Shown in pieces: positions 49,838 through 64,000 of a DNA stretch of 64,000 nt. Position 1 is the stretch's first letter; the number at the start of each line of letters is the position of its first letter. This stretch comes from Thermodesulfobacteriota bacterium. Its GTDB lineage: Bacteria; Desulfobacterota; WTBG01; JAGOGO01. The notes under the pieces were generated by a model, which worked only from the letters and a program-made list of their open reading frames with translations, did not search any database and had not been told where the DNA came from. Where the stretch lies: positions 2,043,124 through 2,107,123 of the forward strand of contig CP113000.1 in the NCBI GenBank assembly GCA_026625185.1, given 5' to 3'. The position numbers were made by a program, and so were the translations under genes.

Positions 49838-50013
49838 TCACCGGGCAATCACCCAATCATAAATAAGAAGAAATTTCTTTTCAAAACTTATGAGGGAAAC
49901 ATAATATAATTCGCCTTATAGGAAAGAGAAGAAAAATTAGTTATTGACGCGAAGCGAGGGCTTTTTATTTCGCTCCGTCCTCAATAACGAGAGAAAAAAG
50001 GAAAGCCGGTAGC

Positions 50014-50547
50014 GTGATCAGTGATGTTTATCTGTCCACATTTTTAGCCATAATTCTTTTGATTGCGGCAATATACGACATTTGGGTTGCTAAAATTCCC
50101 AATGTGATCACGTTCTCCGGTATGATAACCGGCATTATATATCATGGGGCAGCTCAGGGTTTGAGCGGGGCCGGGCTGAGTATTGCCGGCCTGCTGGCAG
50201 GGAGCGCGGTATTTTTCCCTTTTTACCTGCTGAAAGGAATGGGAGCCGGGGATATAAAGCTGATGGGAGCGGTGGGCTCCTTAGTGGCCTGGAAAGGAAT
50301 AATCCCGGCTATTGTTTTTACCGCGCTGGCCGGAGGCATTTATGCGTTTGCGCTTATTTTTTGCAATCCCAGTACCTGCAAGAGATTGATCTTTGGATCA
50401 ATATCAATGTTTAAGACTCTTGCGCTGACCGGGCAGATTGTTCTTCCCTCCTTATTTGAAAAGGAGAAAAAGCCGCAGGTGCGTTATGGGGTGGCGATCG
50501 CCGCGGGAACTTTATTTTCGCAGTGGTGGTGGCCGCTGCTTAAGTAG
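50014..50547 (+). CDS. cpaA: Prepilin peptidase CpaA/TadV (A24 family)
   Basis: Polytopic protein with conserved catalytic Asp residues (IYDIWVAKIPN and GMGAGDIKLMGAVG). Confidence 0.7.
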   Translation: MISDVYLSTFLAIILLIAAIYDIWVAKIPNVITFSGMITGIIYHGAAQGLSGAGLSIAGLLAGSAVFFPFYLLKGMGAGDIKLMGAVGSLVAWKGIIPAIVFTALAGGIYAFALIFCNPSTCKRLIFGSISMFKTLALTGQIVLPSLFEKEKKPQVRYGVAIAAGTLFSQWWWPLLK

Positions 50548-50827
50548 TTTTGGGGAACGCTCATTAATTTCTCTCCAACCAAATTTTTCCTTTTACCACC
50601 CCTTTGAAAATGGGTAGAATTGGTTTATTTCTCTTTTTTAAAGTGGAAAATCAAGTTTTCCTCTTTAATTAATGGAAAAAAAACAAATTTTTCTTGAAAT
50701 TTTTCTTGAAATAAATAAAAAACATTGTAAAATATATTTCAAATTGCTTATTTTTATCCCATGAGAAAATTTTCTAACGGCTAAAGTAAAGAAAAATTCT
50801 CATCAGATAAAGAAAGGGGTGAATCTT

Positions 50828-51673
50828 ATGGAGAGATGGAAAGCATTTTTACCGATTCTGATAGCGGTGATTATTGCCTTGATCGGGGCTTTTGCGGCCA
50901 ACAAATGGCTAAAAAAGCAGGCGATTGTAAAGGGGAAACCAACCATTGGGGAAACCGCCCAGATTGCCGTGGCCAAGGTGGATTTGCCCTGGGGAACGAA
51001 GCTGACCTCTGAAGCCTTGACCTCCGCAAGGTTTATTAAAAATAGTTTGCCCACAGGCTATTTTACTGATCTTGCTGCTCTCAACAACCGGGTGCTTCTC
51101 AGTCCGGTTAGTAGGAATGAACCTATTTTAGAATCGCGATTAGCTCCGGTCAGCATTGCTACGGGCGGCGTTTCCGCGGTTATTCCGAGCGGCAAACGGG
51201 CGATAGCGGTCAAAGGCGACAAAGTCATCGGATTATCCGGACTGATCCAGCCTGGCAACCGGGTTGATGTTCTGTTCAGCATAACCAACCCGGAGACACA
51301 AACCGAGATCACCAAAATCGTGCTTCAGGATATTCTGGTGCTGGCCGCCAACACCCAAATAGAGAAAGGCAAGAAAGAAGGCGAAGCAGCTCCGGTGGAT
51401 GTTTATACCCTCGAGGTAACACCGGAAGATGGTGAGAAGCTTGCGCTCGCCGCTACCCAGGGAAGACTTCAGTTCGCTTTAAGAAACCCCATGGATTTGG
51501 AAATGGTGGTTACCAGAGGAGCGACCATACCGGATACGCTCGGTATGTTGTATATACCCGGCAACAAAAAAAGCCCGGAACCCATGGCAACAAGAGGCCC
51601 TTCCGCTGTCCATGAGTCCGAGGTTACCATTATTAACGGCTCTAAGGCAACGGTCGTTAAACATGCGCTGTAA
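50828..51673 (+). CDS. cpaB: Flp pilus assembly protein CpaB/RcpC
   Basis: N-terminal TM anchor, then SAF-like and RcpC beta-rich domains. Position between cpaA and the secretin. Confidence 0.65.
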   Translation: MERWKAFLPILIAVIIALIGAFAANKWLKKQAIVKGKPTIGETAQIAVAKVDLPWGTKLTSEALTSARFIKNSLPTGYFTDLAALNNRVLLSPVSRNEPILESRLAPVSIATGGVSAVIPSGKRAIAVKGDKVIGLSGLIQPGNRVDVLFSITNPETQTEITKIVLQDILVLAANTQIEKGKKEGEAAPVDVYTLEVTPEDGEKLALAATQGRLQFALRNPMDLEMVVTRGATIPDTLGMLYIPGNKKSPEPMATRGPSAVHESEVTIINGSKATVVKHAL

Positions 51674-51696
51674 TTATTTAATGAGAGGGCGGAATT

Positions 51697-51977
51697 CACC
51701 CTCACCCCGGCCCTCTCCCTCAAGGGAGAGGGAGTTTTGAATTGATTCTCTCCCTCAAGGGAGAGGGAGTTTTGAATTGATTCTCTCCCTCAAGGGAGAG
51801 TGGGGTGGTTGCTTCTCTCTCCATTAAGGGAAAAAATGTTTTTTGGTTTCTTCTCTCCGTTAAAGGGGAGATAGAAATTTTGGTTTGATTCTCTCCCTTA
51901 AGGGAGAAGGAAAATTTGGAGTGGATTTTGAAACGTTACCTCCTCTCCCCTGCGGGGAGAGGATTGAGGTGAGGGGG
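51697..51977 (+). repeat. Tandem array of about 7 hairpin units (about 36 bp each: CTCTCCCTCAAGGGAGAG plus GGAGTTTTGAATTGATT). It degenerates distally and ends with an inverted copy of the CCTCACC..GGGGAGAGGA element.
   Basis: The first three units are near-identical. Read directly in the sequence between cpaB and cpaC. Confidence 0.6.
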
Positions 51978-52046
51978 CTTATCGCATCTTATTTTTGCTC
52001 TGATTAATATGTTTCCCCCCCGTAAGAAGGCACGGGGTAAAAGAAA

Positions 52047-53477
52047 GTGAGGAGAAGAATGAGGCTTACAACCACGGCAATAATGAAAGGATATGGACTC
52101 GCTTTTGTTATTCTCGCTTTGTTGCTGACCCTCTCGGGCAGAGCATTTTCTCAAACCATTATCGTGCTGGGAGATAAAAAAACGACTAAGCTTGACCTGG
52201 TCGTCGGGAAATCAGTGATATTTAAAAGCTCTCAGGAAATAAAATCCGCCAGTATCGCTGACCCGGAGATCGCGGAATGCGTTTCTCTATCTCCCAGTGA
52301 AATTTACGTTGTTGCCAAAGCTCCCGGCGCGACCCGCCTTATTATTTCCCAGGCCGGAAAGGCGATGTTTACCTATGATTTAACTGTTGCCTACGATATC
52401 GCGGGGTTGAAGCAGAAGCTCAACGAGATGTTGCCGGACGAGAATAATATTCAGGTAACGGCCACGAATAAATCCCTTACCTTGAGCGGCCGGGTTTCGA
52501 GCACGGTCAAGCTTTCTCAAGCGCTCGCGATTGCTGAGGGCTTCGCTCCCAAGGGGGGAATCAATAATCTCCTTGAGGTCGCCGGAGTACATCAGGTGAT
52601 GCTGGAAGTGCGGGTGGCGGAGATGTCAAAGAGTTTAGGTCAAAAGCTGGGTTTTAATTTTGCTTACACCAACGGGCAAGACTTCGCCCTTACCCATTTG
52701 GCACAACTTACTTCCTTCGATTCCGCGACCGCAGGCGGGCCATTGGGCATTGCGGTCTCTTCCGCGGTTAACGCCCTTTTTCGTTTTAAGAAGGGCAACT
52801 CCACCTGGACCAATTTTATTGACGCCTTAAAAGAAGACGGCTTGGTCCACGTTCTGGCGGAGCCGACCCTGATCGCTTTAAGCGGCCAGTCAGCAAACTT
52901 TCTCGCCGGAGGGGAGTTTCCGATCCCGGTTCCCCAGGGACTCGGAACGGTCGGCATTGAATATAAATCATTCGGCGTCGGCCTTACCTTCACGCCGATT
53001 GTTCTCGATGATAAAAAGATTAATATAAAGGTGTCCCCTGAGGTTTCACAGTTGGATTATTCCATCGGTATCAATATAATAGAAGGACTTCCAGTTCCCG
53101 GAATAACCACCCGGAGGGCCTCGACCACCGTAGAGCTGGGGGACGGCCAGAGCTTTGGTATTGCCGGCCTTCTGCAAGATAGCACGCGCAACGCTATTTC
53201 CAAGTATCCGTTCCTCGGAGAGATGCCGGTGCTGGGAGCTTTGTTCCGCAGCAGCGACTATCAAAGAAGTGAGACGGAGCTGATCATTATTGTTACACCG
53301 CATATTGTAAAGCCCCTTGATATGGCCAAACAGTCTTTGCCGACCGATTATTATGTGGAGCCGAACGCGTGGGAGTTTTACGGCCTGGGTCTCCTGGAAG
53401 GAAGGAGCAAGCCTTTGTCTCCGGTCGCAACCGGTGAGCTCGATGGAGAGTTCGGGCACGCGGTGCCTATGCCGTAG
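52047..53477 (+). CDS. cpaC: Tad/Flp pilus secretin CpaC/RcpA
   Basis: Signal peptide, BON-like N-domain, secretin domain (VHVLAEPTLIALSGQSANFLAGGEFPIPV..GVGLTFTP). Confidence 0.8.
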   Translation: MRRRMRLTTTAIMKGYGLAFVILALLLTLSGRAFSQTIIVLGDKKTTKLDLVVGKSVIFKSSQEIKSASIADPEIAECVSLSPSEIYVVAKAPGATRLIISQAGKAMFTYDLTVAYDIAGLKQKLNEMLPDENNIQVTATNKSLTLSGRVSSTVKLSQALAIAEGFAPKGGINNLLEVAGVHQVMLEVRVAEMSKSLGQKLGFNFAYTNGQDFALTHLAQLTSFDSATAGGPLGIAVSSAVNALFRFKKGNSTWTNFIDALKEDGLVHVLAEPTLIALSGQSANFLAGGEFPIPVPQGLGTVGIEYKSFGVGLTFTPIVLDDKKINIKVSPEVSQLDYSIGINIIEGLPVPGITTRRASTTVELGDGQSFGIAGLLQDSTRNAISKYPFLGEMPVLGALFRSSDYQRSETELIIIVTPHIVKPLDMAKQSLPTDYYVEPNAWEFYGLGLLEGRSKPLSPVATGELDGEFGHAVPMP

Positions 53478-53667
53478 GGGAAAAAGGAAGGGGATTTTCT
53501 CCTCACCCTGTCCCTCTCCCCCGAGGGGGAGAGGGGAGCTACTTTAAAAATAATCCTCCCCTTTGGTAAAGGGGAGTTAGAGGAAATTTTAACGTAAGAA
53601 TGAAACGTGACCTCAATCACGTTGTCGGATTTAATAGAATCGGCGACAAATTGTAACAAAAACGGCG

Positions 53668-53867
53668 ACAAATTAATGAAATCGGGCACAATTTCCCAGG
53701 GGTATTTTTCAGGCAACACAAAACCTGTCTGATTTTTGACTTCAAAATCAGCAGGTATTTTATCCCCACAAATTAATGAAATCGGGCACAATTTCCCAGG
53801 GGTATTTTTCAGGCAACACAAAACCTGTCTGATTTTTGACTTCAAAATCAGCAGGTATTTTATCCCC
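53668..53867 (+). repeat. Perfect 2 x 100-bp tandem direct duplication. Each unit contains the hairpin CTGATTTTTGACTTCAAAATCAG.
   Basis: Units 53668..53767 and 53768..53867 appear identical by eye. They are preceded by the partial related motif CGGCGACAAATT (twice). Confidence 0.7.
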
Positions 53868-53938
53868 AAAATTCTTATGGCCGAAGCCGATTTTTCCCCT
53901 AAAAAAACAAATTCATTAAGGCATAAAAACCTTCTTTT

Positions 53939-54697
53939 TTAAAAATTACTAATTAACAATTCTTTCCCTTCGCTGTGATTACCCCTATTTAGAGTATAAA
54001 TTGTCGATACCGGCTTAATTTTAAATCCTTTAAATATTTCCCTGATCTCCTGCGCATCATTGATACTCAGAACGAATTGCGCTTTGATTTTGGCCAGCTT
54101 ATCCGCCATCTCTTTATAATCAGGCAGTTCCATATTAAACTTATACCAGGGAGCCTTCCAATAGGGCGGATCGAGATAAAAAAAGGCCTCAGCACGATCA
54201 TAACAAACCAAAAATTTCTGGTACGGGAGATTTTCAATCGTAACCTGAGACAACCTCAAATGGACTTCTGATAACTCCTCTTCCAGCCGAAGCAGATTAA
54301 TCCCGGGTCTATGCAAGGGTCTCATCCCAAAGTTTCTACCCACCACCTTTGCGCTGAACGCGTGCCGCTGGAGATAATAATAATGGGCTGCTCGTTGGAT
54401 ATCAGTCAAACCCCCGGCAACTTGCTGCCGCTTAAAATCCTCGAACCATTCTCTCGATGATAAAATCCATTTAAATTGTTTTAAAAACTCCTCTAAATGA
54501 TGCTGTAATACACGGTAAAAGCAAATCAGATCGCTATCCAGATCATTGATAACTTCAAATTTAGAGGGTTCTTTGCGAAAAAATACCCACGCTGCCCCGG
54601 CAAAGACCTCACAGTACATTTTGTGCTCCGGGATCATCTCAATTATTGTTTTTGCCAGCTTACTTTTGCCGCCGATGTACGCTAATGGACTGTCCAC
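53939..54697 (-). CDS. dam: DNA adenine methyltransferase (Dam-like, D12 class N6-adenine MTase)
   Basis: YIGGKSKLA (motif X/I AdoMet-binding region), FAGAAWVFF, and catalytic DPPY (FYLDPPYW). Confidence 0.85.
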   Translation of the reverse strand: MDSPLAYIGGKSKLAKTIIEMIPEHKMYCEVFAGAAWVFFRKEPSKFEVINDLDSDLICFYRVLQHHLEEFLKQFKWILSSREWFEDFKRQQVAGGLTDIQRAAHYYYLQRHAFSAKVVGRNFGMRPLHRPGINLLRLEEELSEVHLRLSQVTIENLPYQKFLVCYDRAEAFFYLDPPYWKAPWYKFNMELPDYKEMADKLAKIKAQFVLSINDAQEIREIFKGFKIKPVSTIYTLNRGNHSEGKELLISNF

Positions 54698-54857
54698 TGG
54701 ACACCTCCTTGTGCAGAAAAATAACTTGTGTTATTATTCCCACACCATCTTTTCTCATCCCGATGGTGGAGAGTTTCCGCATTATGCGGACTGCGCTGGG
54801 TGGTGCCAGTGCGGCGGTGGCAGAGATCCATCACAATCTCTGCCCCGAACTTTCCTT

Positions 54858-55289
54858 TTATTTTAATGATTGATCTGATTGAGTTATAGTGGCCTGCGGC
54901 GTCGAAACCAATGGTGCAGGAGTCGCAACCGTCTGAGAATCCGGTATCACTGGAGCGGTTGCGGGAACGCCTTGAGTCTTAGCTGCCACTGCGCCATAAG
55001 CTGCCGCCGCATTCAAGATATTGGTCATAAAACCGCTCAACTGTGTGCTTGTGTCGGCATTATACGTGCCGAGTAAATCACTCCAGGTTATTACCTGGTT
55101 TACAAAAGGCGGTTTTTTGGCCGTTATATCCATTTTTGCAATCACTATTTTCCCCGTACTATCGTACTGTTCTTTGTGGATGGTCATGGTGGTACACCCA
55201 CTTGAAAAAATCAACCCCCAAACAACCAAAACAGTAATAAAATAAACACAAAACAGTTCGAACTCAAAATAATAGAATATTTTTTTCAT
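54858..55289 (-). CDS. Hypothetical secreted or lipoprotein with a Thr/Pro/Ala-rich C-terminus
   Basis: N-terminal hydrophobic helix plus SSGC lipobox-like motif. Confidence 0.3.
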   Translation of the reverse strand: MKKIFYYFEFELFCVYFITVLVVWGLIFSSGCTTMTIHKEQYDSTGKIVIAKMDITAKKPPFVNQVITWSDLLGTYNADTSTQLSGFMTNILNAAAAYGAVAAKTQGVPATAPVIPDSQTVATPAPLVSTPQATITQSDQSLK

Positions 55290-55301
55290 GCGAACTCCTT
55301 T

Positions 55302-55808
55302 CTATTTGAGCCGTACCGGCTCGTTTAAAACATCCCATTTGGCGATATCGCCCGGCCGGGGAGCGGTTTTACCTTCCACCAGCCCGGCGGCTCGATACGC
55401 CAGAAAAACAAACTCGCTGCAAAAATACCTCGTGCAATCCGCCGAGACCCGGCCAAAAATATTTTTAATTACCGAGCCAAAATCATACGGCGTGCCGACC
55501 TGATCAAGCGCCCAGGTGACGATTTGTTCACGCGCGCCACAATATTCTTTTTTGAGCGGCAGCCACCAGGCTTCACCGTCATATTTTTTAACCCTCCACG
55601 ATAAAATACGCAGCTCAATGCCTGACGCGTTGGCTTCAAGAATAAACCGGCGATCGGTCAAGCCTTTAAACTCTTCCAGCCGGATCACCAGCGAAGCGTG
55701 GCTGTAACCGCCGTAAAGCCGGATCAGGCGCGAGATCGCTCCCGTGCCCTTCCAGAGGATCACGTCTCCGGACTTGATAGCCTCACGATGTTGAGAATAA
55801 TTATTCAT
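55302..55808 (-). CDS. Permuted papain-fold (NlpC/P60 superfamily, YiiX-like) amidase, putative phage cell-wall hydrolase
   Basis: The His-containing segment (GDVILWKG..YSHASLVI) precedes the Cys segment (GTPYDF..DCTRYFCSEFV). This is the circularly permuted order. Confidence 0.45.
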   Translation of the reverse strand: MNNYSQHREAIKSGDVILWKGTGAISRLIRLYGGYSHASLVIRLEEFKGLTDRRFILEANASGIELRILSWRVKKYDGEAWWLPLKKEYCGAREQIVTWALDQVGTPYDFGSVIKNIFGRVSADCTRYFCSEFVFLAYRAAGLVEGKTAPRPGDIAKWDVLNEPVRLK

Positions 55809-56188
55809 CAGCTCGGGTCCCTGATCTCCAATATATCAAATGGATTAAGAGGACATTCTACTTCATCTATCACCGGGATATTACAGGTGCTGATTGCCTT
55901 AATCTCCGAATTTACCGAATCAGAAATTACCACATGTGTTGCCGTGTTTGTCCCGGTCCCCGTAATCGTCTGTGCCGCAACTGTCAGCTTTCTTCCACTT
56001 GTATCCCCATCGCCGATAGTATAGTCACCGTTACCGTCTCCGGTGGTCAGCGTTACTTGGCCGAGAGAAACCGCGGCTATTCCGGCATAGTTAGCAGGCT
56101 GGGCAGAACAGAGGTCGAGCTTATTACCATTGTCGGCAATGTCCGCCAATAGTAAGTCTTTTTCATCATCGGGTATTAATTTCCCCAT
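55808..56188 (-). CDS. Hypothetical Gly/Thr-rich protein (phage structural?)
   Basis: No recognised family. Lies within the tail module. Confidence 0.25.
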   Translation of the reverse strand: MGKLIPDDEKDLLLADIADNGNKLDLCSAQPANYAGIAAVSLGQVTLTTGDGNGDYTIGDGDTSGRKLTVAAQTITGTGTNTATHVVISDSVNSEIKAISTCNIPVIDEVECPLNPFDILEIRDPS

Positions 56189-56197
56189 TTTTTCTCC

Positions 56198-56716
56198 TTA
56201 TCTAAATAATATAATTCTTAGTTTAAATGGCTTAGGTTCATAAATTCCTTGAGTATTTTTCTGTCTCATCCCAGTAGCGTAAGGGACCGGTAGGTTCATT
56301 ACCTGAATGCCTAATTGAAGTTGAATTATTCTACCGCCTATTTGCGTGGTAGATTTACCGACCAATTTGTCCAGTATGTCATTTCCTAAATCATTTTTTA
56401 ATTGCACTTTCCAGCCATAGCAACCATCAACTGCCACTTCTACTTGAGAAATGTATTCACAGAATGTCCACATGGCAGTATCAACCCACTCCAAAAGAAC
56501 AGGACTATCTATCTTCTTAACCACATCGGCAGCAGAAATATTAAGAGTCCCATTTGCGTCAGGTACACAATCCCACTGTAAGCATGTCTGAGTTGGTTCT
56601 GTACCTATCATGTCAGCAGTCCTTGACCAGTAGACGGAAAGCTCCGCTGTTCCTGCTGCAAAAGTTCGTAACGCAAAAAGAAAAACGAAAACTAAAGAGA
56701 AAAATATTTTTTTCAT
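56198..56716 (-). CDS. Hypothetical secreted protein
   Basis: N-terminal signal peptide (MKKIFFSLVFVFLFALRTFAAG). Confidence 0.3.
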   Translation of the reverse strand: MKKIFFSLVFVFLFALRTFAAGTAELSVYWSRTADMIGTEPTQTCLQWDCVPDANGTLNISAADVVKKIDSPVLLEWVDTAMWTFCEYISQVEVAVDGCYGWKVQLKNDLGNDILDKLVGKSTTQIGGRIIQLQLGIQVMNLPVPYATGMRQKNTQGIYEPKPFKLRIILFR

Positions 56717-56725
56717 AAAACCCTC

Positions 56726-59110
56726 CTAAAAAACTAAAAACATTAAATAATCACCGCCACTTACTTTAGTGACAACATCACAAATCAACTCACAGATAAT
56801 TTCATCGACATTATAAATTGAGCTGGTTACCTCATCACAAACCGGCTGAATAACCATTTCATCGACGTCATTGCCGACCGAGTAGATACTATCCTTCTCA
56901 ATTTTGGGCTGACCCCATGTCCAAGTATTATTGGATGATGCTCTGGTTTTATTAAATGTGAGCATGTAAAAGTGCCCACCGAATAAAAACACCATCGGCC
57001 AAGGGCTGGTATCCGGGTCGCCGTCAAAGGTGGCGACTAAAGTAGAGATCAAAAGATTCATTCCAACATCATAGACCAATGAACTATTAGCCTTATAGGT
57101 TTGAGCGATAATCCAAAAAGTACCGTCAAAATTTTGTAGACATGTTCCCTCTGCCCTGTTATTGGTATCAATGCTAATTGAGGTAAACGAACTTAAATCT
57201 GTTGAATAAGCCAAGGCAGGCCGTTGGCTCCCTCCAGAATCCCAAGTGGTGTATGCAATTAACCATCGGGAATTTGCGCTATCGTAGGCGGACATGAGAT
57301 CGAAGGCGCCGGCCCCTCCGCTGGTTGTCGGAAGGCTTAGGGCAGACAATCCACTAACCACATTCGTGCCGGAAAGGATATCTCCGGTAGTAAATAGTTT
57401 ATGGTCAGCGGTGATTGTGGTTAAAAGTCCGTCACCCCATCGTGAAATAAACAGCCTCCTGTCACCATTGTTATGCCTTATAATATGGGCTGCATGGTCG
57501 TTCATGATTTTGCTACTTCGAGAAACCATAATTACAGCCAATTGGGTAATGGTATAGTCACCGAGATCAAGAGAGAAAACTCCGCAATATCCAGAAGGTG
57601 TGGTTTGAGATGTAAAAGAATCATAATATGACCCTGCTGGGTCAGAAGCAGTGGCAGTAAAAAGAATGGTGGTTCCATCTATATAAGGCGTACCGTCTTC
57701 ATTTGTGACAACCCGCGTATCTCTAAGCCCGACTCCCCCAAACCTGCCACATTTGAAATTTGAAAAAGCAATAGTGGATGTCCCACTGGTTTTTAAGGCA
57801 AAAAATCCCGCCATGTAGCCCGACAACGCAGTTGATCCTCTTAAATCTGTTGTCGAAGAAGCCTGTTTGCAAGCATACGTCCATCCCGATCCGGAATCGT
57901 ACCATGCACACAATGAATTCCCCACAATACTCAATCCGATTTTAAACGGAGGAGTTAATGTTATGCTGAAAGAGGCTGTCCCTGAAGAACCACTTCCCCC
58001 AAATTTCCATGTTATATGGACGTAAGTGTTATCGCTTTCATAAACAACTTTCACAAAGTTATCTGCATCCTTAATCAAAACAACCCCGGCTCGCCAGTTG
58101 GCGGAATCTCCTGAAAATGAGTCGATTTGAGCTTCTATAAATGCCTGCGGCATCGAAAAAGAACTGGTATTTTCTGCTACATAATCGCTTTGTGGTGATC
58201 CCGAAGTGGTCTGTGCAATGGTAAATTTATTGTTTGCAATAGACGTGGAACCAGCATTGTTTTCGGTAAATTTAGTGAATTGTCCGTTATCGGCGGAAAA
58301 GTTTTCAGAAAAATCATTCAAACCTGAGGGATCTGGGTCAAAATAAGTAGGAGACCCAACTACAGAAAGATTCATTGCGGTAGGAATATACCCAATCCCG
58401 GAAAATGTTCCTCCCCGAATTGCATCTATCTCAGCTATTACTAAATTTCGGTTAAACAAAACCAACTCATCAACCAGTACGGGAACGGAATTTGGGCTAT
58501 CCGTGGGATCGCAACCGATATAAAAAGAATTGCTTGACCGGACGGTAAGGGTATTGGAAAAAGTATGAGTGTAAGTTGTAGCGGTTTGAGCGGTATCATC
58601 CCAAATACGCACGACCATCTTTTTGGTTACCCCATCGAGTACCAATCCAACATGATACCACCGTCCTGTGCTTAAGGTAGCCACCACCCATTCTTCCTGT
58701 TGTTGAACGGTTCCATATCCCCAAGCGACCCTAAACTGAGTGGTCGAATTTTTAAACCCCACAAAGAGGCAACTCCCAACTCCATTCCATTCAGCATTCC
58801 CGAAAAGAAGTGGATAACCGGAGGGCGTTCCGCTGAGATAAAACCAGCAACACCCCGAAAATCTCTTTACCGTATCGCCACTTTTAAGCGGGAACCCGGC
58901 GCATTGATTTGCGCTGGAAATTGAAAGTCTATTTTTTGCAGCCGTATCATTAAGTTTGGCAGAATCTGAACCTTCCTTATAGCTGGTTGTAGAATTAACC
59001 ACCCCGGTATTTGATAGCGTGTTCGTGCTTATGGAATCTACGGTAAGGGCCCCGTTTTCCATGCGCCAAAGAGCCTTACAAAAAATATCCTGAGAAAAAT
59101 CGTTACCCAC
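56726..59110 (-). CDS. Large tail-fiber/receptor-binding-like protein with a LamG/ConA-like lectin domain
   Basis: 794 aa, Ser/Thr/Gly/Asn-rich beta composition. The N-terminal region is LamG-like (LVDELVLFNRNL). It lies adjacent to the host-specificity protein. Confidence 0.45.
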   Translation of the reverse strand: MGNDFSQDIFCKALWRMENGALTVDSISTNTLSNTGVVNSTTSYKEGSDSAKLNDTAAKNRLSISSANQCAGFPLKSGDTVKRFSGCCWFYLSGTPSGYPLLFGNAEWNGVGSCLFVGFKNSTTQFRVAWGYGTVQQQEEWVVATLSTGRWYHVGLVLDGVTKKMVVRIWDDTAQTATTYTHTFSNTLTVRSSNSFYIGCDPTDSPNSVPVLVDELVLFNRNLVIAEIDAIRGGTFSGIGYIPTAMNLSVVGSPTYFDPDPSGLNDFSENFSADNGQFTKFTENNAGSTSIANNKFTIAQTTSGSPQSDYVAENTSSFSMPQAFIEAQIDSFSGDSANWRAGVVLIKDADNFVKVVYESDNTYVHITWKFGGSGSSGTASFSITLTPPFKIGLSIVGNSLCAWYDSGSGWTYACKQASSTTDLRGSTALSGYMAGFFALKTSGTSTIAFSNFKCGRFGGVGLRDTRVVTNEDGTPYIDGTTILFTATASDPAGSYYDSFTSQTTPSGYCGVFSLDLGDYTITQLAVIMVSRSSKIMNDHAAHIIRHNNGDRRLFISRWGDGLLTTITADHKLFTTGDILSGTNVVSGLSALSLPTTSGGAGAFDLMSAYDSANSRWLIAYTTWDSGGSQRPALAYSTDLSSFTSISIDTNNRAEGTCLQNFDGTFWIIAQTYKANSSLVYDVGMNLLISTLVATFDGDPDTSPWPMVFLFGGHFYMLTFNKTRASSNNTWTWGQPKIEKDSIYSVGNDVDEMVIQPVCDEVTSSIYNVDEIICELICDVVTKVSGGDYLMFLVF

Positions 59111-59112
59111 GG

Positions 59113-59766
59113 TTAATACCCTTTATTGATCGCCACAAAATCATATTTTGAGTCCGTTCCGTTATAGACGTAACCGAGACGGTCAAGTTTATTCGCCCCG
59201 GATGATAATGTCGGCGGTGACGGCAGGTCGTCACTGCCGCGCACCTCAGCGCCGAATGTGACCGTCCGTCCTCCAGTGGCATCCTGTTTTAAAAGAAGTT
59301 GGCATTTTTGCCCATCAGCCGCGCCGGAAAAAGTAAAGGCTACCGTCGCCCGGTCGAAGGTCATTTTGCCGATCCCGCCGAGAGACCAGTCAATGGTGAC
59401 ATTGTCGGCGCAGGTAATTGTCTGCACGACTTTTTCCGGATGTTTTAGTTTCCACGCGCTGCCATTGTAATTAATTTCAACATCCTCATCCTGCACGAAT
59501 GCCCGCCAACCCTCTGCCGGTAAAAGAAAAATCCAGCCGTTATCGTAAATCGCCACGTAATTTTCTTTCCCGGCCCATGCTCCGGTGGCAGTGGCCTTGG
59601 GGATATATACCTGGCCATTGCTGGGGCTGCCCGGAGGAGCCGTTAAATCGCGGTCAATCACACATATCTGTGCCATGACTGCCAGCCGGTGATTTGCCTG
59701 GTTGTGGGTTAAATATTTCGAGGCCTGGCTTTCGACCATGTCGGTTATTTGCAAAAAATCGGTCAT
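59113..59766 (-). CDS. DUF2793-like phage tail-associated protein
   Basis: The pattern LTAPPGSPSNGQVYIP..ATGAWAGKENYVAIYDNGWIFLLPAEGWRAFVQDE is recalled as characteristic of DUF2793 proteins found in GTA/prophage tail clusters. From memory only. Confidence 0.4.
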   Translation of the reverse strand: MTDFLQITDMVESQASKYLTHNQANHRLAVMAQICVIDRDLTAPPGSPSNGQVYIPKATATGAWAGKENYVAIYDNGWIFLLPAEGWRAFVQDEDVEINYNGSAWKLKHPEKVVQTITCADNVTIDWSLGGIGKMTFDRATVAFTFSGAADGQKCQLLLKQDATGGRTVTFGAEVRGSDDLPSPPTLSSGANKLDRLGYVYNGTDSKYDFVAINKGY

Positions 59767-59822
59767 AATAAACTCATAAATAAAATGTTAGCGGTTTAAC
59801 CGGTTTAAACAGTTCAAGCGGT

Positions 59823-62800
59823 TCAAATTGTTGCTGACGCCCCATAACCCCGGTCAACGGTCGCTGAAATTTGATAGGCTATCAAATTTACCGGGCTGCC
59901 TGGGGTTATCCCGTCTGCGGTCTGCTGGGCAGCTGTATAGCTCGCCGATTCGGTAGTTGCGGTAATTGTCCGCACAACTGATCCGCTTTTGTAAATATCT
60001 ATTTTAAAAGACTTGGTTGTCTCTCCCAACGGCACATCTGAGTTGTCCCGCCATTCTCCTCCGATTCGGGTACGGCGAATCCAGGTAATAGTCAGGTTAT
60101 TGCTCCCATCCCGTGTGCCCGTAACATGACAGGGTGCATAAGGTTTTTTGCCTACCGCATCGCAGACAAACGGTATGATTTGATGATCACCCAGATCAGC
60201 ATCCGGTGGCATCACCACATAAAATCTCGTTTGTTCTATATCCTCCGATTGCAGCTTGATCCGATCGTATTTTTTCGAGTCATTCAGTATAACAAACCGC
60301 TCGCCCGTAGTATGTCCCCCGACTGCCCATTCCGTTCCCCGAAGCCCTCTCATCAGGGCTGAGATCGTCCAGCTTCCGCTCCCGTTGTCGGTCGCATTCA
60401 TAAACCGTATAATTTCATCACCCACTAAGCATAGGTTTACTCCGTTTAGTACGTCCGCTTCCGTCGCGTCCTCTAAAATAGAATCTGCATCGTAAAGTTG
60501 GATGGTAAGGGAATTTATCAGGTCAAATGATCCCACGCTCCCAACCGACCCGAGGACGGACAGACAGCGGCCAATCACAGACTCATCTTCGATGTTGCCT
60601 ACACGGTCAAAATTTCTGATGCCGTCGTTGGATTCTAATATCTTAGCCCCATACCAATAATATGAAGAGCGTGCCGCCAGGTAAAAGCCACAATCATCAT
60701 CCCGGTCATCGACCAGCGGAATATCCAAAAAATACGGATCAAGCTGACCCTTGGAATTTTTTAGACTTTCGTCTTCTTGCCCGGAAACGGATGTTTGTTC
60801 TGTTCCTGTTGCGTTGGATACGTAACAATAATCAGCATCCGGCAGGGCTTTACATTCCATCAGCAGGTTAGCTCCAATCTGGATCTCATTCAGCAGCAAC
60901 AAAAAACTATTATCTTTGTACGGAATGGTTAGCACGTCCGTGGGATCATATTTCAGGTATTTCCAGGGGATCGCGAATTCGTATTCACCCTCTTTTTGTT
61001 TCCAGGCGAGGTAAAGCATTTTTTCGGATATCTGCTTTGCCAAATCTTTGTCCATCACTACCGCAATATCTATCGTCTCTTTGTTGCGGCTGTTCATGGT
61101 GGTTGGGACGCGGGTGGAAAATTGGGTTCTGGACTCGTGGCTCTGGTCGACGTCGATGTATTTCACCTCTATGGTCTGAGGAATATCCATGTCGATCTCA
61201 CGATTGGTGAGCAGAGGTACTGGCCGGGAGTCGCCGAACACATGTGCCCCCAGTTCATCTTCATCAATCGTTCCATCGGATATTCCAGTTCGCAACGGAA
61301 ATTTTAGTTTCCAGTCGCTTTCCACCGCATCGAAAAAAAATGCGGATTGAAGGGTCTCGATGGCGCTTCTCCCGGTAGAATCACCGGTGACCGAAATCCC
61401 GTCAATATTGATGCCTGACAAATCGGAGACATCTATATCCGACGAGGTTAAAGACATCTGCTCGGCAATGTCCGTTATAATGCTTGATAAGGTAACTTTA
61501 TCGGCGCTAACTCGGTCAATGTACATCACCCAACCACTATTTGTTCCGCGCCCCCACAATGCTAACCCTTCATCATCGATAAGTAATTGAGAAGGAGTGC
61601 CCGTAAATTCCAAACTACTGCAGGTTACTTGCCGTAATATCGTGAGGGTTTTACAATCAACTTCGCACGCGTACCCGCTTTCTAAAACCAACCAAAAAAT
61701 TCCCCCCGAGCTGGGACCATTTTTAAAAGCGGCAGAGTTACCACCCCTTAAAGTAGATGAAAAATCAAGCGTGGAAATTACTGTTTTAGAATTGAGTGAG
61801 TATTTAATCAGCCGCCCGACACCACTATGTTGACCGCCGACGATGAGGAAATCATCCCCTGTTTTATTTTGGAAATAAGTTATGTAAAGAGGATATTCCA
61901 GATCGGAGGGAGAAATATCAAATTTTTCATTGCCAAAATATGGGATAAAGAGGGCATCCAATAATTCCACAACCGGCGGGATCATACAGTGTATTAAAAA
62001 CCCTCCTGTATGCCCCATTGATGGCACCCCGCAAACAGCCCAGCAATCACCATTTTTGTCCACCGCGCCCTGTAAAACCTCGCAGCCGTAACCAGTTGTC
62101 GCCGGGTTAGGAATAGGATTTAATAGATAGGTCAACCACATATCACCGTCTAAAATAAGCGTTTTGCCCCCCATAAGACTTTGCCCAAAAATAAACGGCT
62201 GCACCCCTTCAATTACGGTTCCCGATATTCCCCCTAAAATCCAAATGTAGGGCAATGATACTCCCATGTAATCGACAAATGATACGCAGTAACCACCACT
62301 GGGTTGATCTGTCCCGGCTTTATTGCCCTGATAATCAACTGTCCACCCCAGGTATTTAAAGTCTTTGCTGTACTTTACAAGGGGGACGGTCACAAAACCA
62401 TAGGCTCCAAACCCCCAGGCGTAAGCGTACCCAAAAAAATCGAAACACCAATCACCCCCTCCAATGTCACTTTCAGAAGCCGGAAAATATTTTTGAACGG
62501 ACTGATCGTAAATATCCACCACAATTACTGTTGAACCACCTATAGCATATATAATTTCCGGCATGCCCCACGGTTTAAAATATATCGCATCTGTATTCGG
62601 ATTCTCAGGCAACTCAAAAATATCCAAATCATTAACTATGTCGCCCGATGCCACCACTTCGGCCTCGACTTTAGACGGTAATTGGCTGCCAAAATCGTCT
62701 AAACGGACATTTTTAAACAACGTGTAAGCCTGGCCTCGATAAGACGGGACTTTGCCGATGCCTTCAACGCTTTCCATGTAGGGGTCAGTCTCTTGGGTTT

Positions 62801-63197
62801 GGTCTCCAAGGTAATGGGTCATGCTGTCAACTATTTTTTTTGCCACTTTTTTATTGTCGGGCATAACATTATAGACCAGCTTATCATTGAGCCAAATCCG
62901 CCGTATGGCGGTAATCGGCCCGGACCCCCATGACACCGCGAAGGTCGCATAGTAATGGTAGGTAACTGTCGTTACCCCGCCGCTGGTCTTCGATTTCTTT
63001 TTTTCCCTTAATTGATTTCCTTCCACCCATATATATTTACCCTCCCAGCGATTTGCCCCCCATCCGCGCCTAATCGGTTCCCCATACGTTTTCGCGGTTA
63101 CTCGCCGGTCTTCCAGGCGCGGGCCGTATTGTTTAACCGGCTTGTTAAAAAGCTTTCCTAAAAATGAAAGCCCTATCGCAAAAAGGAAACCCCACAT
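59823..63197 (-). CDS. Phage host-specificity / distal tail protein (Phage-tail_3 family, RcGTA g15-like)
   Basis: The N-terminus GPRLEDRRVTAKTYGEPIRRGWGANRWEGKYIWVEG...GGVTTVTYHYYATFAVSWGSGPI matches the conserved start of lambda-J-like and GTA host-specificity proteins. 1124 aa. Confidence 0.7.
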   Translation of the reverse strand: MWGFLFAIGLSFLGKLFNKPVKQYGPRLEDRRVTAKTYGEPIRRGWGANRWEGKYIWVEGNQLREKKKSKTSGGVTTVTYHYYATFAVSWGSGPITAIRRIWLNDKLVYNVMPDNKKVAKKIVDSMTHYLGDQTQETDPYMESVEGIGKVPSYRGQAYTLFKNVRLDDFGSQLPSKVEAEVVASGDIVNDLDIFELPENPNTDAIYFKPWGMPEIIYAIGGSTVIVVDIYDQSVQKYFPASESDIGGGDWCFDFFGYAYAWGFGAYGFVTVPLVKYSKDFKYLGWTVDYQGNKAGTDQPSGGYCVSFVDYMGVSLPYIWILGGISGTVIEGVQPFIFGQSLMGGKTLILDGDMWLTYLLNPIPNPATTGYGCEVLQGAVDKNGDCWAVCGVPSMGHTGGFLIHCMIPPVVELLDALFIPYFGNEKFDISPSDLEYPLYITYFQNKTGDDFLIVGGQHSGVGRLIKYSLNSKTVISTLDFSSTLRGGNSAAFKNGPSSGGIFWLVLESGYACEVDCKTLTILRQVTCSSLEFTGTPSQLLIDDEGLALWGRGTNSGWVMYIDRVSADKVTLSSIITDIAEQMSLTSSDIDVSDLSGINIDGISVTGDSTGRSAIETLQSAFFFDAVESDWKLKFPLRTGISDGTIDEDELGAHVFGDSRPVPLLTNREIDMDIPQTIEVKYIDVDQSHESRTQFSTRVPTTMNSRNKETIDIAVVMDKDLAKQISEKMLYLAWKQKEGEYEFAIPWKYLKYDPTDVLTIPYKDNSFLLLLNEIQIGANLLMECKALPDADYCYVSNATGTEQTSVSGQEDESLKNSKGQLDPYFLDIPLVDDRDDDCGFYLAARSSYYWYGAKILESNDGIRNFDRVGNIEDESVIGRCLSVLGSVGSVGSFDLINSLTIQLYDADSILEDATEADVLNGVNLCLVGDEIIRFMNATDNGSGSWTISALMRGLRGTEWAVGGHTTGERFVILNDSKKYDRIKLQSEDIEQTRFYVVMPPDADLGDHQIIPFVCDAVGKKPYAPCHVTGTRDGSNNLTITWIRRTRIGGEWRDNSDVPLGETTKSFKIDIYKSGSVVRTITATTESASYTAAQQTADGITPGSPVNLIAYQISATVDRGYGASATI

Positions 63198-63203
63198 GTA
63201 AAA

Positions 63204-64000
63204 TTAGTCCTCTGCATCCGGAGATTGATTTATAACGCTTTCGGGAGGCACAAACGGCTCACCCCTAAAATTTATTACATTGTCGTATTTATCTTCACAG
63301 GTGCTCACTTTTTTATCACATCCGGGATAGGCCTCGTAGGTATCGCCGATTTGAATCGTTTTCGGCATCGCGAGGAATAGAGTAAACGTTGTCGTACTTA
63401 AACCCCAATCTTTAACCTCCATTGACAGCCCGGCGTTATCACCCGTGAGCCAATGAATATAACCGTAATTAAAATAATCGTTAGCCTCGGTGCGAGAACT
63501 GTCGGCAAATACCCGGTTGTCCGTCACGCCGGTCACCGCGCCGGTGACTTTGAGGGCAGTCAGATTAACGCCGCACCGGGAATCACCCAGATCCGCCCGG
63601 CATTCCGCGCTGTATGCCTCGCACATTTTTTTGGAAAAATAATCCGTCATGCTGGTGATGGAGGCGGTATATTTACCTTGTTCTATTTTAACCTTTCCGA
63701 ACCGCCCGCGCCGCAGCTTGATGATCCCCATGCCGGTGTTCATGAAGTTGATCAGGAATAACCAGATCTCGGCGTAGTCGTATTTGCCCTCGCGCAAATC
63801 GTTCTCCAAAACCCCATCTCCCTCATCAAATAATAATCCTTCCAAATCAACTTGGTCAGGATTCATTTGGGAGGTTGTTGAAATGGCCGTACGGTCTCCG
63901 CCGGTAGCCGCTTCATAGGTCACGCCGTCATAAACAATGTCTTTATCGTTCGAGGTAAAACCGAGAGTTACCCCGTCCTGCCGGGTGATTTTCCAACAGA
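63204..64000 (-). CDS. DUF2163 (BR0599/TIGR02218-like, RcGTA g13 N-domain-like) phage protein. The 5' end is outside the window.
   Basis: The C-terminus YPGCDKKVSTCEDKYDNVINFRGEPFVP matches the family hallmark GC..K....C..K..N..NF.GFP..P. The reading frame stays open to the window edge (..WKITRQDGVTLGFTSNDKDIVYDGVTYEA). Confidence 0.6.
   Translation of the reverse strand, partial: CWKITRQDGVTLGFTSNDKDIVYDGVTYEAATGGDRTAISTTSQMNPDQVDLEGLLFDEGDGVLENDLREGKYDYAEIWLFLINFMNTGMGIIKLRRGRFGKVKIEQGKYTASITSMTDYFSKKMCEAYSAECRADLGDSRCGVNLTALKVTGAVTGVTDNRVFADSSRTEANDYFNYGYIHWLTGDNAGLSMEVKDWGLSTTTFTLFLAMPKTIQIGDTYEAYPGCDKKVSTCEDKYDNVINFRGEPFVPPESVINQSPDAED

Follow-up and report, generated by a model that had tools for sequence, protein, structure and literature searches.

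Gene content of the distal late region

The window analysed here, a stretch of 64,000 nucleotides, comes from an uncultured Thermodesulfobacteriota bacterium that is a relative of sulfate reducers, and its last part carries nine genes on the minus strand next to one end of a larger element (Table 1). The sequence-only reading had already listed all nine; their positions stand and their family assignments hold in Pfam.

Table 1. Features of the right-hand part of the window, in order of position.
Feature	Position	Strand	Evidence or detail
Right-hand copy of the 5-bp target-site duplication	53618-53622	.	CACGT on + strand = ACGTG in element orientation
Right end (attR)	53623-53694	-	Terminus 5'-TGTCGGA on + strand (...TCCGACA-3' in element orientation)
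Tandem duplication, 100-nt unit, 2.1 copies, 99% matches	53668-53873	.	Just inside the right end
Orphan D12-class (Dam-type) N6-adenine DNA methyltransferase	53939-54697	-	Pfam MethyltransfD12 5.6e-30, residues 7-235
Predicted lipoprotein, 143 aa, N-terminal hydrophobic stretch ending ...FSSGC	54858-55289	-	Lipobox read from translation
Permuted papain-like amidase, 168 aa, Peptidase_C92, YaeF/YiiX family	55302-55808	-	Pfam 9.1e-11; phrog_1128 3.6e-19
126-aa protein (MGKLIPDDEKD...), no signal peptide (read by eye)	55808-56188	-	Translation
172-aa protein with signal-peptide-like N-terminus (read by eye)	56198-56716	-	Translation
Putative tail fibre / receptor-binding protein, 794 aa	56726-59110	-	Pfam Laminin_G_3 7.6e-11
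DUF2793 protein, 217 aa	59113-59766	-	Pfam DUF2793 5.7e-23; PHROG tail fibre families
'Megatron' baseplate and host-specificity protein, 1124 aa, RcGTA g15 homologue	59823-63197	-	Pfam Phage-tail_3 1.4e-20 and Rcc01698_C 1.4e-22
Baseplate hub, RcGTA g13 homologue	63204-64000+	-	Pfam Phage_phiJL001_Gp84_N (DUF2163) E=2.5e-43; Phage_BR0599 E=7.8e-26

The hub reading frame is cut by the window end, with its first ~21 codons lying outside, and a full-length copy occurs on a near-identical contig (L007, 5706-6563), where its length is 278-285 aa. It joins a DUF2163 attachment domain to a BR0599 four-cysteine domain and matches, among PDB entries, RcGTA g13 (6TBA, E=1.6e-36), the R4C hub (1.5e-34) and JBD30 gp50 (3.3e-12); in this comparison all four cysteines line up with the Fe-S ligands of RcGTA. 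The megatron matches RcGTA g15 (6TBA, 8e-45), the megatron of roseophage R4C (8GTC, 9e-40) and phrog_4271 (3.4e-169), and is 26-32% identical to tail proteins from 128 sequenced phage records. Its N-terminal helix is hydrophobic (MWGFLFAIGLSFLGKLF) and stands where RcGTA has its iris/penetration domain (PMC7296036). A hub with DUF2163 and BR0599 four-cysteine domains together with an Rcc01698_C megatron makes this a tip of the RcGTA/phiJL001 type, and the homology to the distal-tail proteins of RcGTA that had been recognised from the sequence is real.

RcGTA has a gene of its own for the NlpC/P60 peptidase, g14, which sits between g13 and g15 (PMC7296036). Hence, contrary to the sequence-only reading, DUF2163 does not directly precede Phage-tail_3 there, and the NlpC/P60 domain, correctly reported as absent here, is in RcGTA not fused to DUF2163. 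In the window the g14 position is empty: no open reading frame lies between hub and megatron, none of the tail proteins scanned with Pfam in the window or the continuation contigs matches NlpC_P60, and g14 is truly absent because the two genes are only 6 nt apart. The separate permuted amidase noticed downstream does belong to Peptidase_C92; its gene lies five genes downstream, and 13 contigs encode the identical protein. It is possible, if doubtful, that the RcGTA-type tip lost g14 in this lineage and that the amidase is a virion-borne peptidoglycan hydrolase replacing it, an idea at which the sequence-only reading had hinted. If true, this would be a non-orthologous replacement inside a structurally characterised DNA-delivery machine.

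The DUF2793 protein is homologous to the N-terminal domain of Rcc00171, the tail fibre of RcGTA, which bears DUF2793; in RDJLphi1, the Rcc00171 homologue likewise comes right after the homologues of g12-g15 (PMC5026251). The LamG/concanavalin-like domain of the putative fibre spans residues 81-228, and the N-terminal part of the protein is one of two strain-variable patches (mismatch cluster 58000-59500). Both small proteins that follow had been taken to be secreted, which agrees with the N-terminus of the 172-aa protein and not with that of the 126-aa protein. The start of the latter overlaps the neighbourhood where the preceding late gene ends, within the late operon. The predicted lipoprotein gene is present in every copy of the element, and its product is possibly a moron or exclusion protein. 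Pfam and PHROG searches gave no match for the 172-aa, 126-aa and 143-aa products.

The final gene before the right end encodes the Dam-type methylase. The DPPY catalytic motif is present in its translation as YLDPPYW, and the protein matches phrog_56 DNA methyltransferase (3.1e-78), MTase_II in PADLOC (6.3e-69), and the PDB entries 7M6B and 2DPM (the DpnII methylase). Phage B3 encodes a homologue too (ORF48, 46% identical). No adjoining endonuclease gene was seen with PADLOC. The evidence supports the earlier proposal that this gene is phage cargo. In phage Mu, the gene nearest the right end is mom of the com-mom pair; there too a DNA-modification gene closes a transposable phage, presumably for anti-restriction. 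Mom, however, is not a D12 methyltransferase, and no Com-like translational activator gene was found preceding the methylase here. Expressed late, Dam would methylate progeny DNA and so might allow its escape from restriction, a role that the homologous methylase plays in B3 and that mom, whose genome position is the same, plays in Mu.

Ends of the element and insertion site

The element extends past the Dam gene to a terminus at 53623. Once assembled, it is 40,325 bp long, starts with TG, ends with CA, and is bordered on either side by ACGTG. The left ACGTG stands directly before the TG (2120-2124) of contig L032, which shares the window's host flank; the left boundary is confined to a few nucleotides between the start of a 100-aa host gene and the TG, and the call of this terminus rests on the target-site duplication and the TG dinucleotide. 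At the right end, 12-nt direct repeats lie at +19, +41, and +61 from the terminus (53641-53652, CGGCGACAAATT; 53663-53674, CGGCGACAAATT; 53683-53694, CGGGCACAATTT), and are predicted to be transposase-binding sites like R1-R3 of Mu. The motif matches nine times in the window (3.6 expected), and the four perfect matches cluster at the right end, where the 100-nt duplication adds a fourth copy (53783-53794); this unit is single-copy in all other contigs. Over its first 140 nt, the left end shows just a weak match to the repeat of the right end; the one clear copy lies at +145, and an inverted copy was read by eye near +95.

The insertion lies within a tad (Flp) pilus operon, between the cpaC secretin gene and the 100-aa gene. 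In a relative whose secretin is 71% identical, an orthologous 102-aa gene (52% identity, E=3e-32) is found 21 nt after the secretin gene and is followed by TadE, TadG, CpaE, CpaF, TadB, and TadC. No empty site was recovered from the same species, where contigs stop at the phage end. A second copy occupies an unrelated site next to PGM/PGI, both in the same NCBI assembly (GCA_029216075.1) and in further samples. The copies at the two sites are 99% identical over 6 kb, and their homology ends exactly at the right terminus, which is identical in both (...ATTAAATCCGACA) and followed by a different flank.

The element beyond the window

Gene content beyond position 64000 is inferred from near-identical contigs, which are 98.9-99.2% identical to the window and share its host flank at 99.97%. 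The left arm contains ~6 kb of defence-type cargo. The early region encodes a divergent repressor, an HTH_35 Ner-like protein, Gam, GemA, and a 740-aa transposase (Mu-transpos_C 3.6e-16, DDE_2, HTH_Tnp_Mu_1) followed by a 229-aa AAA_22/TniB-like protein, a MuB-like ATPase. The transposase shares 21-25% identity with its counterparts in cultured transposable phages; a search with it gave 344 proteins at E<=1e-10, of which the 120 listed all have identities of 47% or more. An SLT endolysin gene lies upstream of the head module, which consists of Mu Gp27, the large terminase, a 689-aa Portal_Mu and Mu_F fusion (2.2e-109), a protease (phrog_976), a scaffold, the major head protein (phrog_1005), Mu Gp36, and Mu Gp37. 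Then come Phage_tube_2, a 923-aa tape measure, and, just beyond the window, a DUF2460 distal tail protein, the homologue of g12. No Mor/C-type late activator was identified in the element.

Positions 53623-64000 thus very probably make up the rightmost 10.4 kb of a temperate, Mu-like transposable siphophage of ~40.3 kb that resides in the tad pilus operon. This identity is based on 1) the gene content of the whole element, with a Mu-C-domain DDE transposase followed by an AAA+ ATPase, Mu-type morphogenesis genes, and Gam/GemA; 2) the TG...CA termini with repeated subterminal sites; 3) the 5-bp target-site duplication; and 4) the occurrence of the same right terminus at two sites. We are also highly confident that the genes in the window form the distal late operon, made of the tip complex with its Fe-S cluster hub, fibres, accessory genes, and the methylase. 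The prophage type is already known, and the element looks like an ordinary Mu-type transposable prophage.

Comparison with known systems

The overall architecture is that of the Mu-like transposable siphophages B3 (Beetrevirus) of Pseudomonas, JBD30/D3112 (Casadabanvirus), and RcapMu of Rhodobacter. Their genomes have a similar size (about 38-40 kb), and from left to right the gene order is shared: repressor/Ner, transposase A, ATPase B, Gam with GemA, lysis, Mu gp27, terminase, portal, F, protease, capsid, gp36/gp37, and a siphovirus tail. The portal and capsid of B3 and RcapMu are 32-40% identical to those of the element (35% for the portal in B3-like transposable Pseudomonas siphophages). 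In RcapMu, attL and the repressor are similarly separated by several genes, and the annotated end repeats are imperfect as well. The element differs from these phages in the fusion of the portal and Mu F domains in one protein, in the position of Dam at the right end rather than within the tail operon and with no Com-like gene before it, and in the defence-type cargo of its left arm. The tail tip differs as well: that of RcapMu is of lambda type (gpL/K/J-like), whereas that of the element is of RcGTA type (DUF2460, full hub, and megatron), a type from which the tips of B3 and JBD30 also depart, even if JBD30 has its own DUF2163 four-cysteine baseplate protein (PMC11445458). A close relative of the prophage has a lambda-type tip in place of the RcGTA-type one; the two are interchangeable modules on related Mu-like siphophages.

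The tip itself resembles those of RcGTA and of several true siphophages. Homologues of g12, g13, g15, and the DUF2793 part of Rcc00171 occur in the same order in RcGTA, which in contrast has a g14 gene, different head, packaging, and neck genes, and a conserved chromosomal cluster instead of a mobile insertion with its own transposition, immunity, and lysis. The order tape measure-g12-g13-(g14)-g15 is also that of phiJL001, the roseophages R4C and RDJLphi1, and Desulfofustis phage LS06-2018-MD02, all of which use other modes of replication and integration. Identity to the element is 32% for phiJL001 gp86 and 29-34% for the proteins of the Desulfofustis phage, which keeps a small gene at the g14 position and encodes a DNA polymerase, a helicase, and a recombinase. 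The host range of this tip had been regarded as unusual. Yet the tip type is present in 128 phage records, among whose hosts are Xanthomonas, Acinetobacter, Alteromonas, and Microcystis, and the Desulfofustis phage is one of these records; therefore, finding it in this host is unremarkable.

Alternative explanations

The element could be a cryptic Mu-like remnant that no longer transposes or forms particles and whose tail genes are decaying or co-opted, which we regard as unlikely. The PGM-site copy of one assembly is in such a state, cut off inside the hub gene beside an N6_Mtase/Eco57I gene and with a 2.9-kb IS1595-family element inserted in its right end, but in another sample (L005/L023) the phage at this site is apparently complete. 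The weak resemblance of the tad-site left end to the end repeats and the 100-nt duplication inside the attR of the window are also in favour of decay. However, all genes of the tad-site copy from transposase to Dam are full-length, with the same lengths in the window and four other assemblies, its target-site duplication is perfect, and it has hardly diverged from the copy at the second locus.

It is highly improbable that the genes belong to a Rhodobacter-type gene transfer agent (GTA) or other domesticated particle, i.e., a host-controlled cluster that packages random host DNA, in this case outside Alphaproteobacteria. The RcGTA gene order of the tip recalls such a cluster, which, lacking g14, does not simply duplicate any phage described so far. 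But homologues of g12, g13, and g15 do not discriminate GTAs from phages, because many true phages have them. Several observations argue for a phage. First, a Mu-type head and a full transposition, immunity, and lysis set adjoin the tail genes without a break, and an RcGTA-like GTA was rejected given MuA, the MuB-like ATPase, Ner, the repressor, Gam, and GemA in the same element. Second, the head is not of the RcGTA type (HK97-like g2-g5), which was rejected in favour of Phage_Mu_Gp27, Portal_Mu with Phage_Mu_F, phrog_976, phrog_1005, Gp36, and Gp37. Third, the element is bounded by TG..CA ends and a 5-bp duplication. Fourth, it interrupts a tad operon that is intact in a relative and has another copy at PGM/PGI, so a conserved, vertically inherited GTA locus was rejected too. 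Of the two options in the sequence-only reading, a GTA-like or a prophage tail module, only the second stands: the upstream region holds a complete prophage with MuA, MuB-like ATPase, repressor/Ner, Gam, endolysin, and head genes, the kind of finding that this reading had itself named as refuting a GTA.

An ordinary integrase-type lambdoid or HK97-like prophage with an RcGTA-type tip is just as hard to defend: among cultured phages, the megatron has its nearest counterparts in siphophages that are not transposable (phiJL001, with gp86, and the recombinase- and DNA polymerase-encoding Desulfofustis phage), yet gene calling and Pfam searches across the 40 kb gave no tyrosine or serine integrase and showed MuA, MuB, Gam, GemA, and a Mu-type head instead, the boundaries have no tRNA or att-type direct repeat but only the 5-bp duplication, and the two insertion sites are unrelated.

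Proposed life cycle and implications

By analogy with the families of its proteins, a cycle can be proposed for the Mu-like prophage. Upon induction, MuA and MuB would replicate the element by transposition from the end repeats, and the Mu-type terminase would then package DNA by headful, including some flanking host DNA. The virion would adsorb via the fibres and, following the model put forward for RcGTA, the N-terminal helices of the megatron might open to pierce the outer membrane.

What looks like a GTA when only the distal tail is considered is in fact the end of a normal transposable prophage. The synteny of DUF2163 and Phage-tail_3 alone is thus unfit for calling GTAs outside Alphaproteobacteria. 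The element documents an uncultured and apparently recently mobile lineage of Mu-like phages in Thermodesulfobacteriota. For the host, the prophage brings defence cargo along, and its insertion may exert a polar effect on the tad pilus genes.

The right arm of a transposable prophage

To judge from its gene content, the region at the right of the window belongs to a Mu-like transposable prophage, of which it forms the right arm; the tail tip of this prophage is of the type found in the gene transfer agent (GTA) of Rhodobacter capsulatus (RcGTA). All the genes that the sequence-only reading had listed on the minus strand in 53939-64000 are present, and Pfam confirms their family assignments well above chance (see table). 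Three small ORFs of this interval had no family match in Pfam or PHROG. Two details of that reading hold in part: one of the "two small secreted proteins" has a signal-like N-terminus and the other lacks it, and the feature does not end with the Dam gene, since the element continues to 53623.

Features of the prophage and its surroundings (positions in the window unless another sequence is named; L-numbers are sequences outside the window, L032 being the contig with the window's host flank and the prophage left end)
Feature	Position	Strand	Evidence or content
Hub, Phage_phiJL001_Gp84_N (DUF2163)	63204 to window end	-	Pfam E=2.5e-43
Hub, Phage_BR0599	63204 to window end	-	Pfam E=7.8e-26
Megatron, Phage-tail_3	59823-63197	-	Pfam E=1.4e-20
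Megatron, Rcc01698_C	59823-63197	-	Pfam E=1.4e-22
DUF2793 protein	59113-59766	-	Pfam E=5.7e-23
Laminin_G_3 protein	56726-59110	-	Pfam E=7.6e-11
Peptidase_C92	55302-55808	-	Pfam E=9.1e-11
MethyltransfD12 (Dam)	53939-54697	-	Pfam E=5.6e-30
Portal-F fusion	L015 3376-5445		689 aa
Left-arm cargo	L032 2494-8116		~6 kb
Defective second copy	L001/L003 1-15030		beside PGM/PGI
tad operon, first side	50014-53477	+	Flp pilin, A24 peptidase, CpaB, CpaC secretin
cpaC secretin	52059-53477	+
tad operon, other side	L032 1-2102		100-aa CpaD-position gene, two TadE genes, TadG
Duplicated 100-nt unit	53668-53873		inside right end
Internal end-repeat copy	L027 8211-8232		TTAACAAAATCGGCGACAATTTCC
CpaB-secretin intergenic stretch	51713-51919		~78% self-identity at 35-nt offset
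G+C-rich palindromic units	53497-53540; L032 1405-1490		…CCCTCTCCCCCGAGGGGGAGAGGG…, by eye

The proposed likeness to the distal tail of RcGTA is real, since sequence searches of solved structures matched the hub to RcGTA g13 (6TBA/6TEH; E=1.6e-36, with 4/4 Fe-S cysteines aligned) and the 1124-aa protein to the g15 "megatron" (E=8e-45). The hub and megatron structures of roseophage R4C were matched by the same two proteins. The NlpC/P60 domain is indeed missing, g14 being absent altogether; the supposition that it is normally fused to DUF2163 was mistaken, as g14 is a gene of its own in RcGTA, in the order g13-g14-g15 (PMC7296036). The tip is not GTA-specific: megatron homologues occur in 128 sequenced phage records, including phiJL001 (after which the Pfam hub domain is named) and phages of Caulobacter, Xanthomonas, Acinetobacter, Alteromonas, and Microcystis. 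Desulfofustis phage LS06-2018-MD02 has the series TMP (tape measure protein)-g12-g13-g14-g15 plus its own polymerase and recombinase, and in phage RDJLphi1 the g12-g15 homologues are followed by a DUF2793 fibre gene (Hynes et al., PMC5026251). Tetraselmis viridis virus S20, considered as a Mu-like phage with an RcGTA-type tip, was rejected, as it is not Mu-like.

The element beyond the window

The sequence past 64000 was read from near-identical contigs (JGI samples 3300028916 and 3300028923, NCBI GCA_029216075.1, and a matching IMG/VR contig). Compared with the JGI and GCA_029216075.1 contigs, the window is 99.97% identical over the host flank (50001-53774) and 98.9-99.2% identical over 53768-64000. 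Several window proteins have identical copies in the searched collections; the window's megatron, looked up by exact sequence, has none; a scan of the genome collection with the tube protein found relatives at 28-54% only, and a metagenome scan with the repressor as query gave no useful match.

The element is 40,325 bp long, with 47% G+C. Upstream of the hub, its genes follow in five blocks: 1) DUF2460 (the g12 distal tail protein), a 923-aa tape measure, a chaperone, the Phage_tube_2 tube, Mu Gp37, and Gp36; 2) capsid, scaffold, protease, and a Portal_Mu+Mu_F fusion (2.2e-109); 3) large terminase, Mu Gp27, and an SLT endolysin; 4) Gam, GemA, a MuB-like AAA ATPase, and a 740-aa transposase with Mu-transpos_C, DDE_2, and Mu DNA-binding domains; and 5) a Ner-like HTH protein, then a repressor in divergent orientation. 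This order is canonical for Mu-like transposable siphophages, and phages B3 and RcapMu share it. They differ in the portal: here the Mu portal (gp29) and Mu F (gp30) domains lie in one protein, whereas B3 and RcapMu keep the two genes separate. They are separate genes in phage Mu as well.

An RcGTA-like GTA, the reading first favoured, fails on every discriminating feature examined. Instead of a GTA-sized set, a Mu-type head module, an endolysin, a MuB-like ATPase, a transposase, and a repressor lie upstream; the head module is Mu-type and not RcGTA-type, the same element carries mobility and immunity genes, and its location is not conserved. The tail tip is the only part in common with a GTA. 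The alternative named at the time, a prophage tail, was right, the region being an arm of a Mu-like prophage.

Ends and insertion site

Homology between the copy in the tad (Flp) pilus operon, whose right arm lies in the window, and a second copy beside PGM/PGI ends at window position 53623; the two share the terminus ...ATTAAATCCGACA, and the flanks beyond are unrelated. Just inside this right end, positions +19, +41, and +61 each carry one of three direct repeats (CGGCGACAAATT, CGGCGACAAATT, and CGGGCACAATTT), which recall the R1-R3 arrangement of phage Mu. A 100-nt unit here is tandemly duplicated in the window and single in all other contigs, and the duplication contributes a fourth end-repeat copy. 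An isolated internal copy of the motif, in left-end orientation, lies between the Gam and lysis genes, upstream of genes for a 74-aa protein and a 321-aa membrane protein, and could be a regulatory site or due to chance.

The right-end repeat found no match to a left end in the viral-contig extract, just outside which that end sat; it was located on L032 after a look-up of the transposase. There (1.6-Mb contig), the insertion reaches TG, immediately preceded by ACGTG, which also stands beyond the right terminus. The match to the end repeat is poor up to +145 from the left terminus. Taken together, the TG..CA ends, the 5-bp duplication, and the two unrelated sites are a hallmark of Mu-type transposition.

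The prophage has the cpaC secretin gene on one side and a 100-aa gene on the other. A relative with a 71% identical secretin has an ortholog of the latter gene (102 aa, 52% identity, E=3e-32) that begins 21 nt past the secretin and is followed by tadE, tadG, cpaE, cpaF, tadB, and tadC. Because the operon is contiguous there, the tad operon here is split by an insertion of the entire 40 kb. The uninterrupted operon was found only in this relative; no same-species empty site was found, as the contigs with the exact secretin protein stop at the phage end. The two sides of the operon now lie 40 kb apart (see table), with a possible polar effect on pilus assembly. In the host DNA, the self-alignment of the CpaB-secretin intergenic stretch suggests a short-period tandem repeat, and the palindromic units, which occur in intergenic DNA to either side of the insertion, resemble host repeats of the REP type.

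A second copy and allele exchange

The copy beside PGM/PGI (JGI Ga0310375_1000050; GCA_029216075.1 JARDUI010000078) is defective, being cut off within the hub gene (prophage position 30613), where it adjoins an N6_Mtase/Eco57I gene. A 2,932-bp IS1595-family element with HNH, PIN, and 241-aa genes interrupts its right end; the terminal inverted repeats of this element are imperfect, and its duplication is 8 bp long (TTCATTAA). The phage also occupies the PGM site in sample 3300015266. Where the window differs from the other tad-site contigs, it does so in two patches only, 62000-62500 (mid-megatron) and 58000-59500 (the C-terminus of the DUF2793 protein and the N-terminus of the LamG protein), and in both its allele is that of the PGM-site copy. 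The pattern indicates recombination among prophage copies or variants in putative receptor-binding genes rather than a diversity-generating mechanism, which was rejected because the patches match the other copy's allele; the gene calls contain no reverse transcriptase.

Methylases, amidase, and left-arm cargo

Dam is an orphan D12 enzyme with a DPPY motif, encoded by the last gene ahead of attR, the prophage right end. It shares 46% identity with the B3 adenine methylase and only 28% with a second D12 methylase, that of the opposite prophage end; a Com-like zinc-finger ORF was looked for upstream of Dam and none was found. Its family and position make late-phase methylation of progeny DNA against restriction the most likely role. 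The C92 amidase has His (in ...GYSHASL...) and Cys (in ...FCSEF...) residues at what we take, from a translation read by eye, to be the positions of the permuted NlpC/P60 catalytic pair; that it replaces the missing g14 tail peptidase seems unlikely. An SLT endolysin is also encoded, in the phage lysis region.

The left end and the repressor gene are separated by cargo encoding a 223-aa proteasome-family protein, three proteins without family (61, 371, and 172 aa), a HEPN AbiV homologue, and a type II restriction-modification pair (a SacI-like endonuclease and a 310-aa D12 methylase). Within this cargo, PADLOC matched only AbiV and the type II methylase, and the whole looks like a prophage-borne defence island.

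Relation to transposable phages

With their B3 and RcapMu counterparts, the portal, capsid, and protease share 32-41% identity. The transposase shares only 21-25% with that of any cultured phage and has hundreds of close relatives, with Thermodesulfobacteriota and "Deltaproteobacteria" metagenome bins among the matches listed. In contrast to the RcGTA-type tip here, the tip of L022, a relative whose tube protein is 61% identical, is of lambda type (Tape_meas_lam_C, gpM, gpL), like that of RcapMu; the arrangement in B3 and JBD30 is a third one, still with a DUF2163/BR0599 four-Cys protein. By this comparison, the tail tip is an exchangeable module. The host range, earlier thought unusual, is unremarkable, because the tip type is widespread in phage records, that of the Desulfofustis phage included, and Mu-like prophages are documented in sulfate reducers, e.g., in PMC12724379. 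The element thus joins known modules in a new combination.
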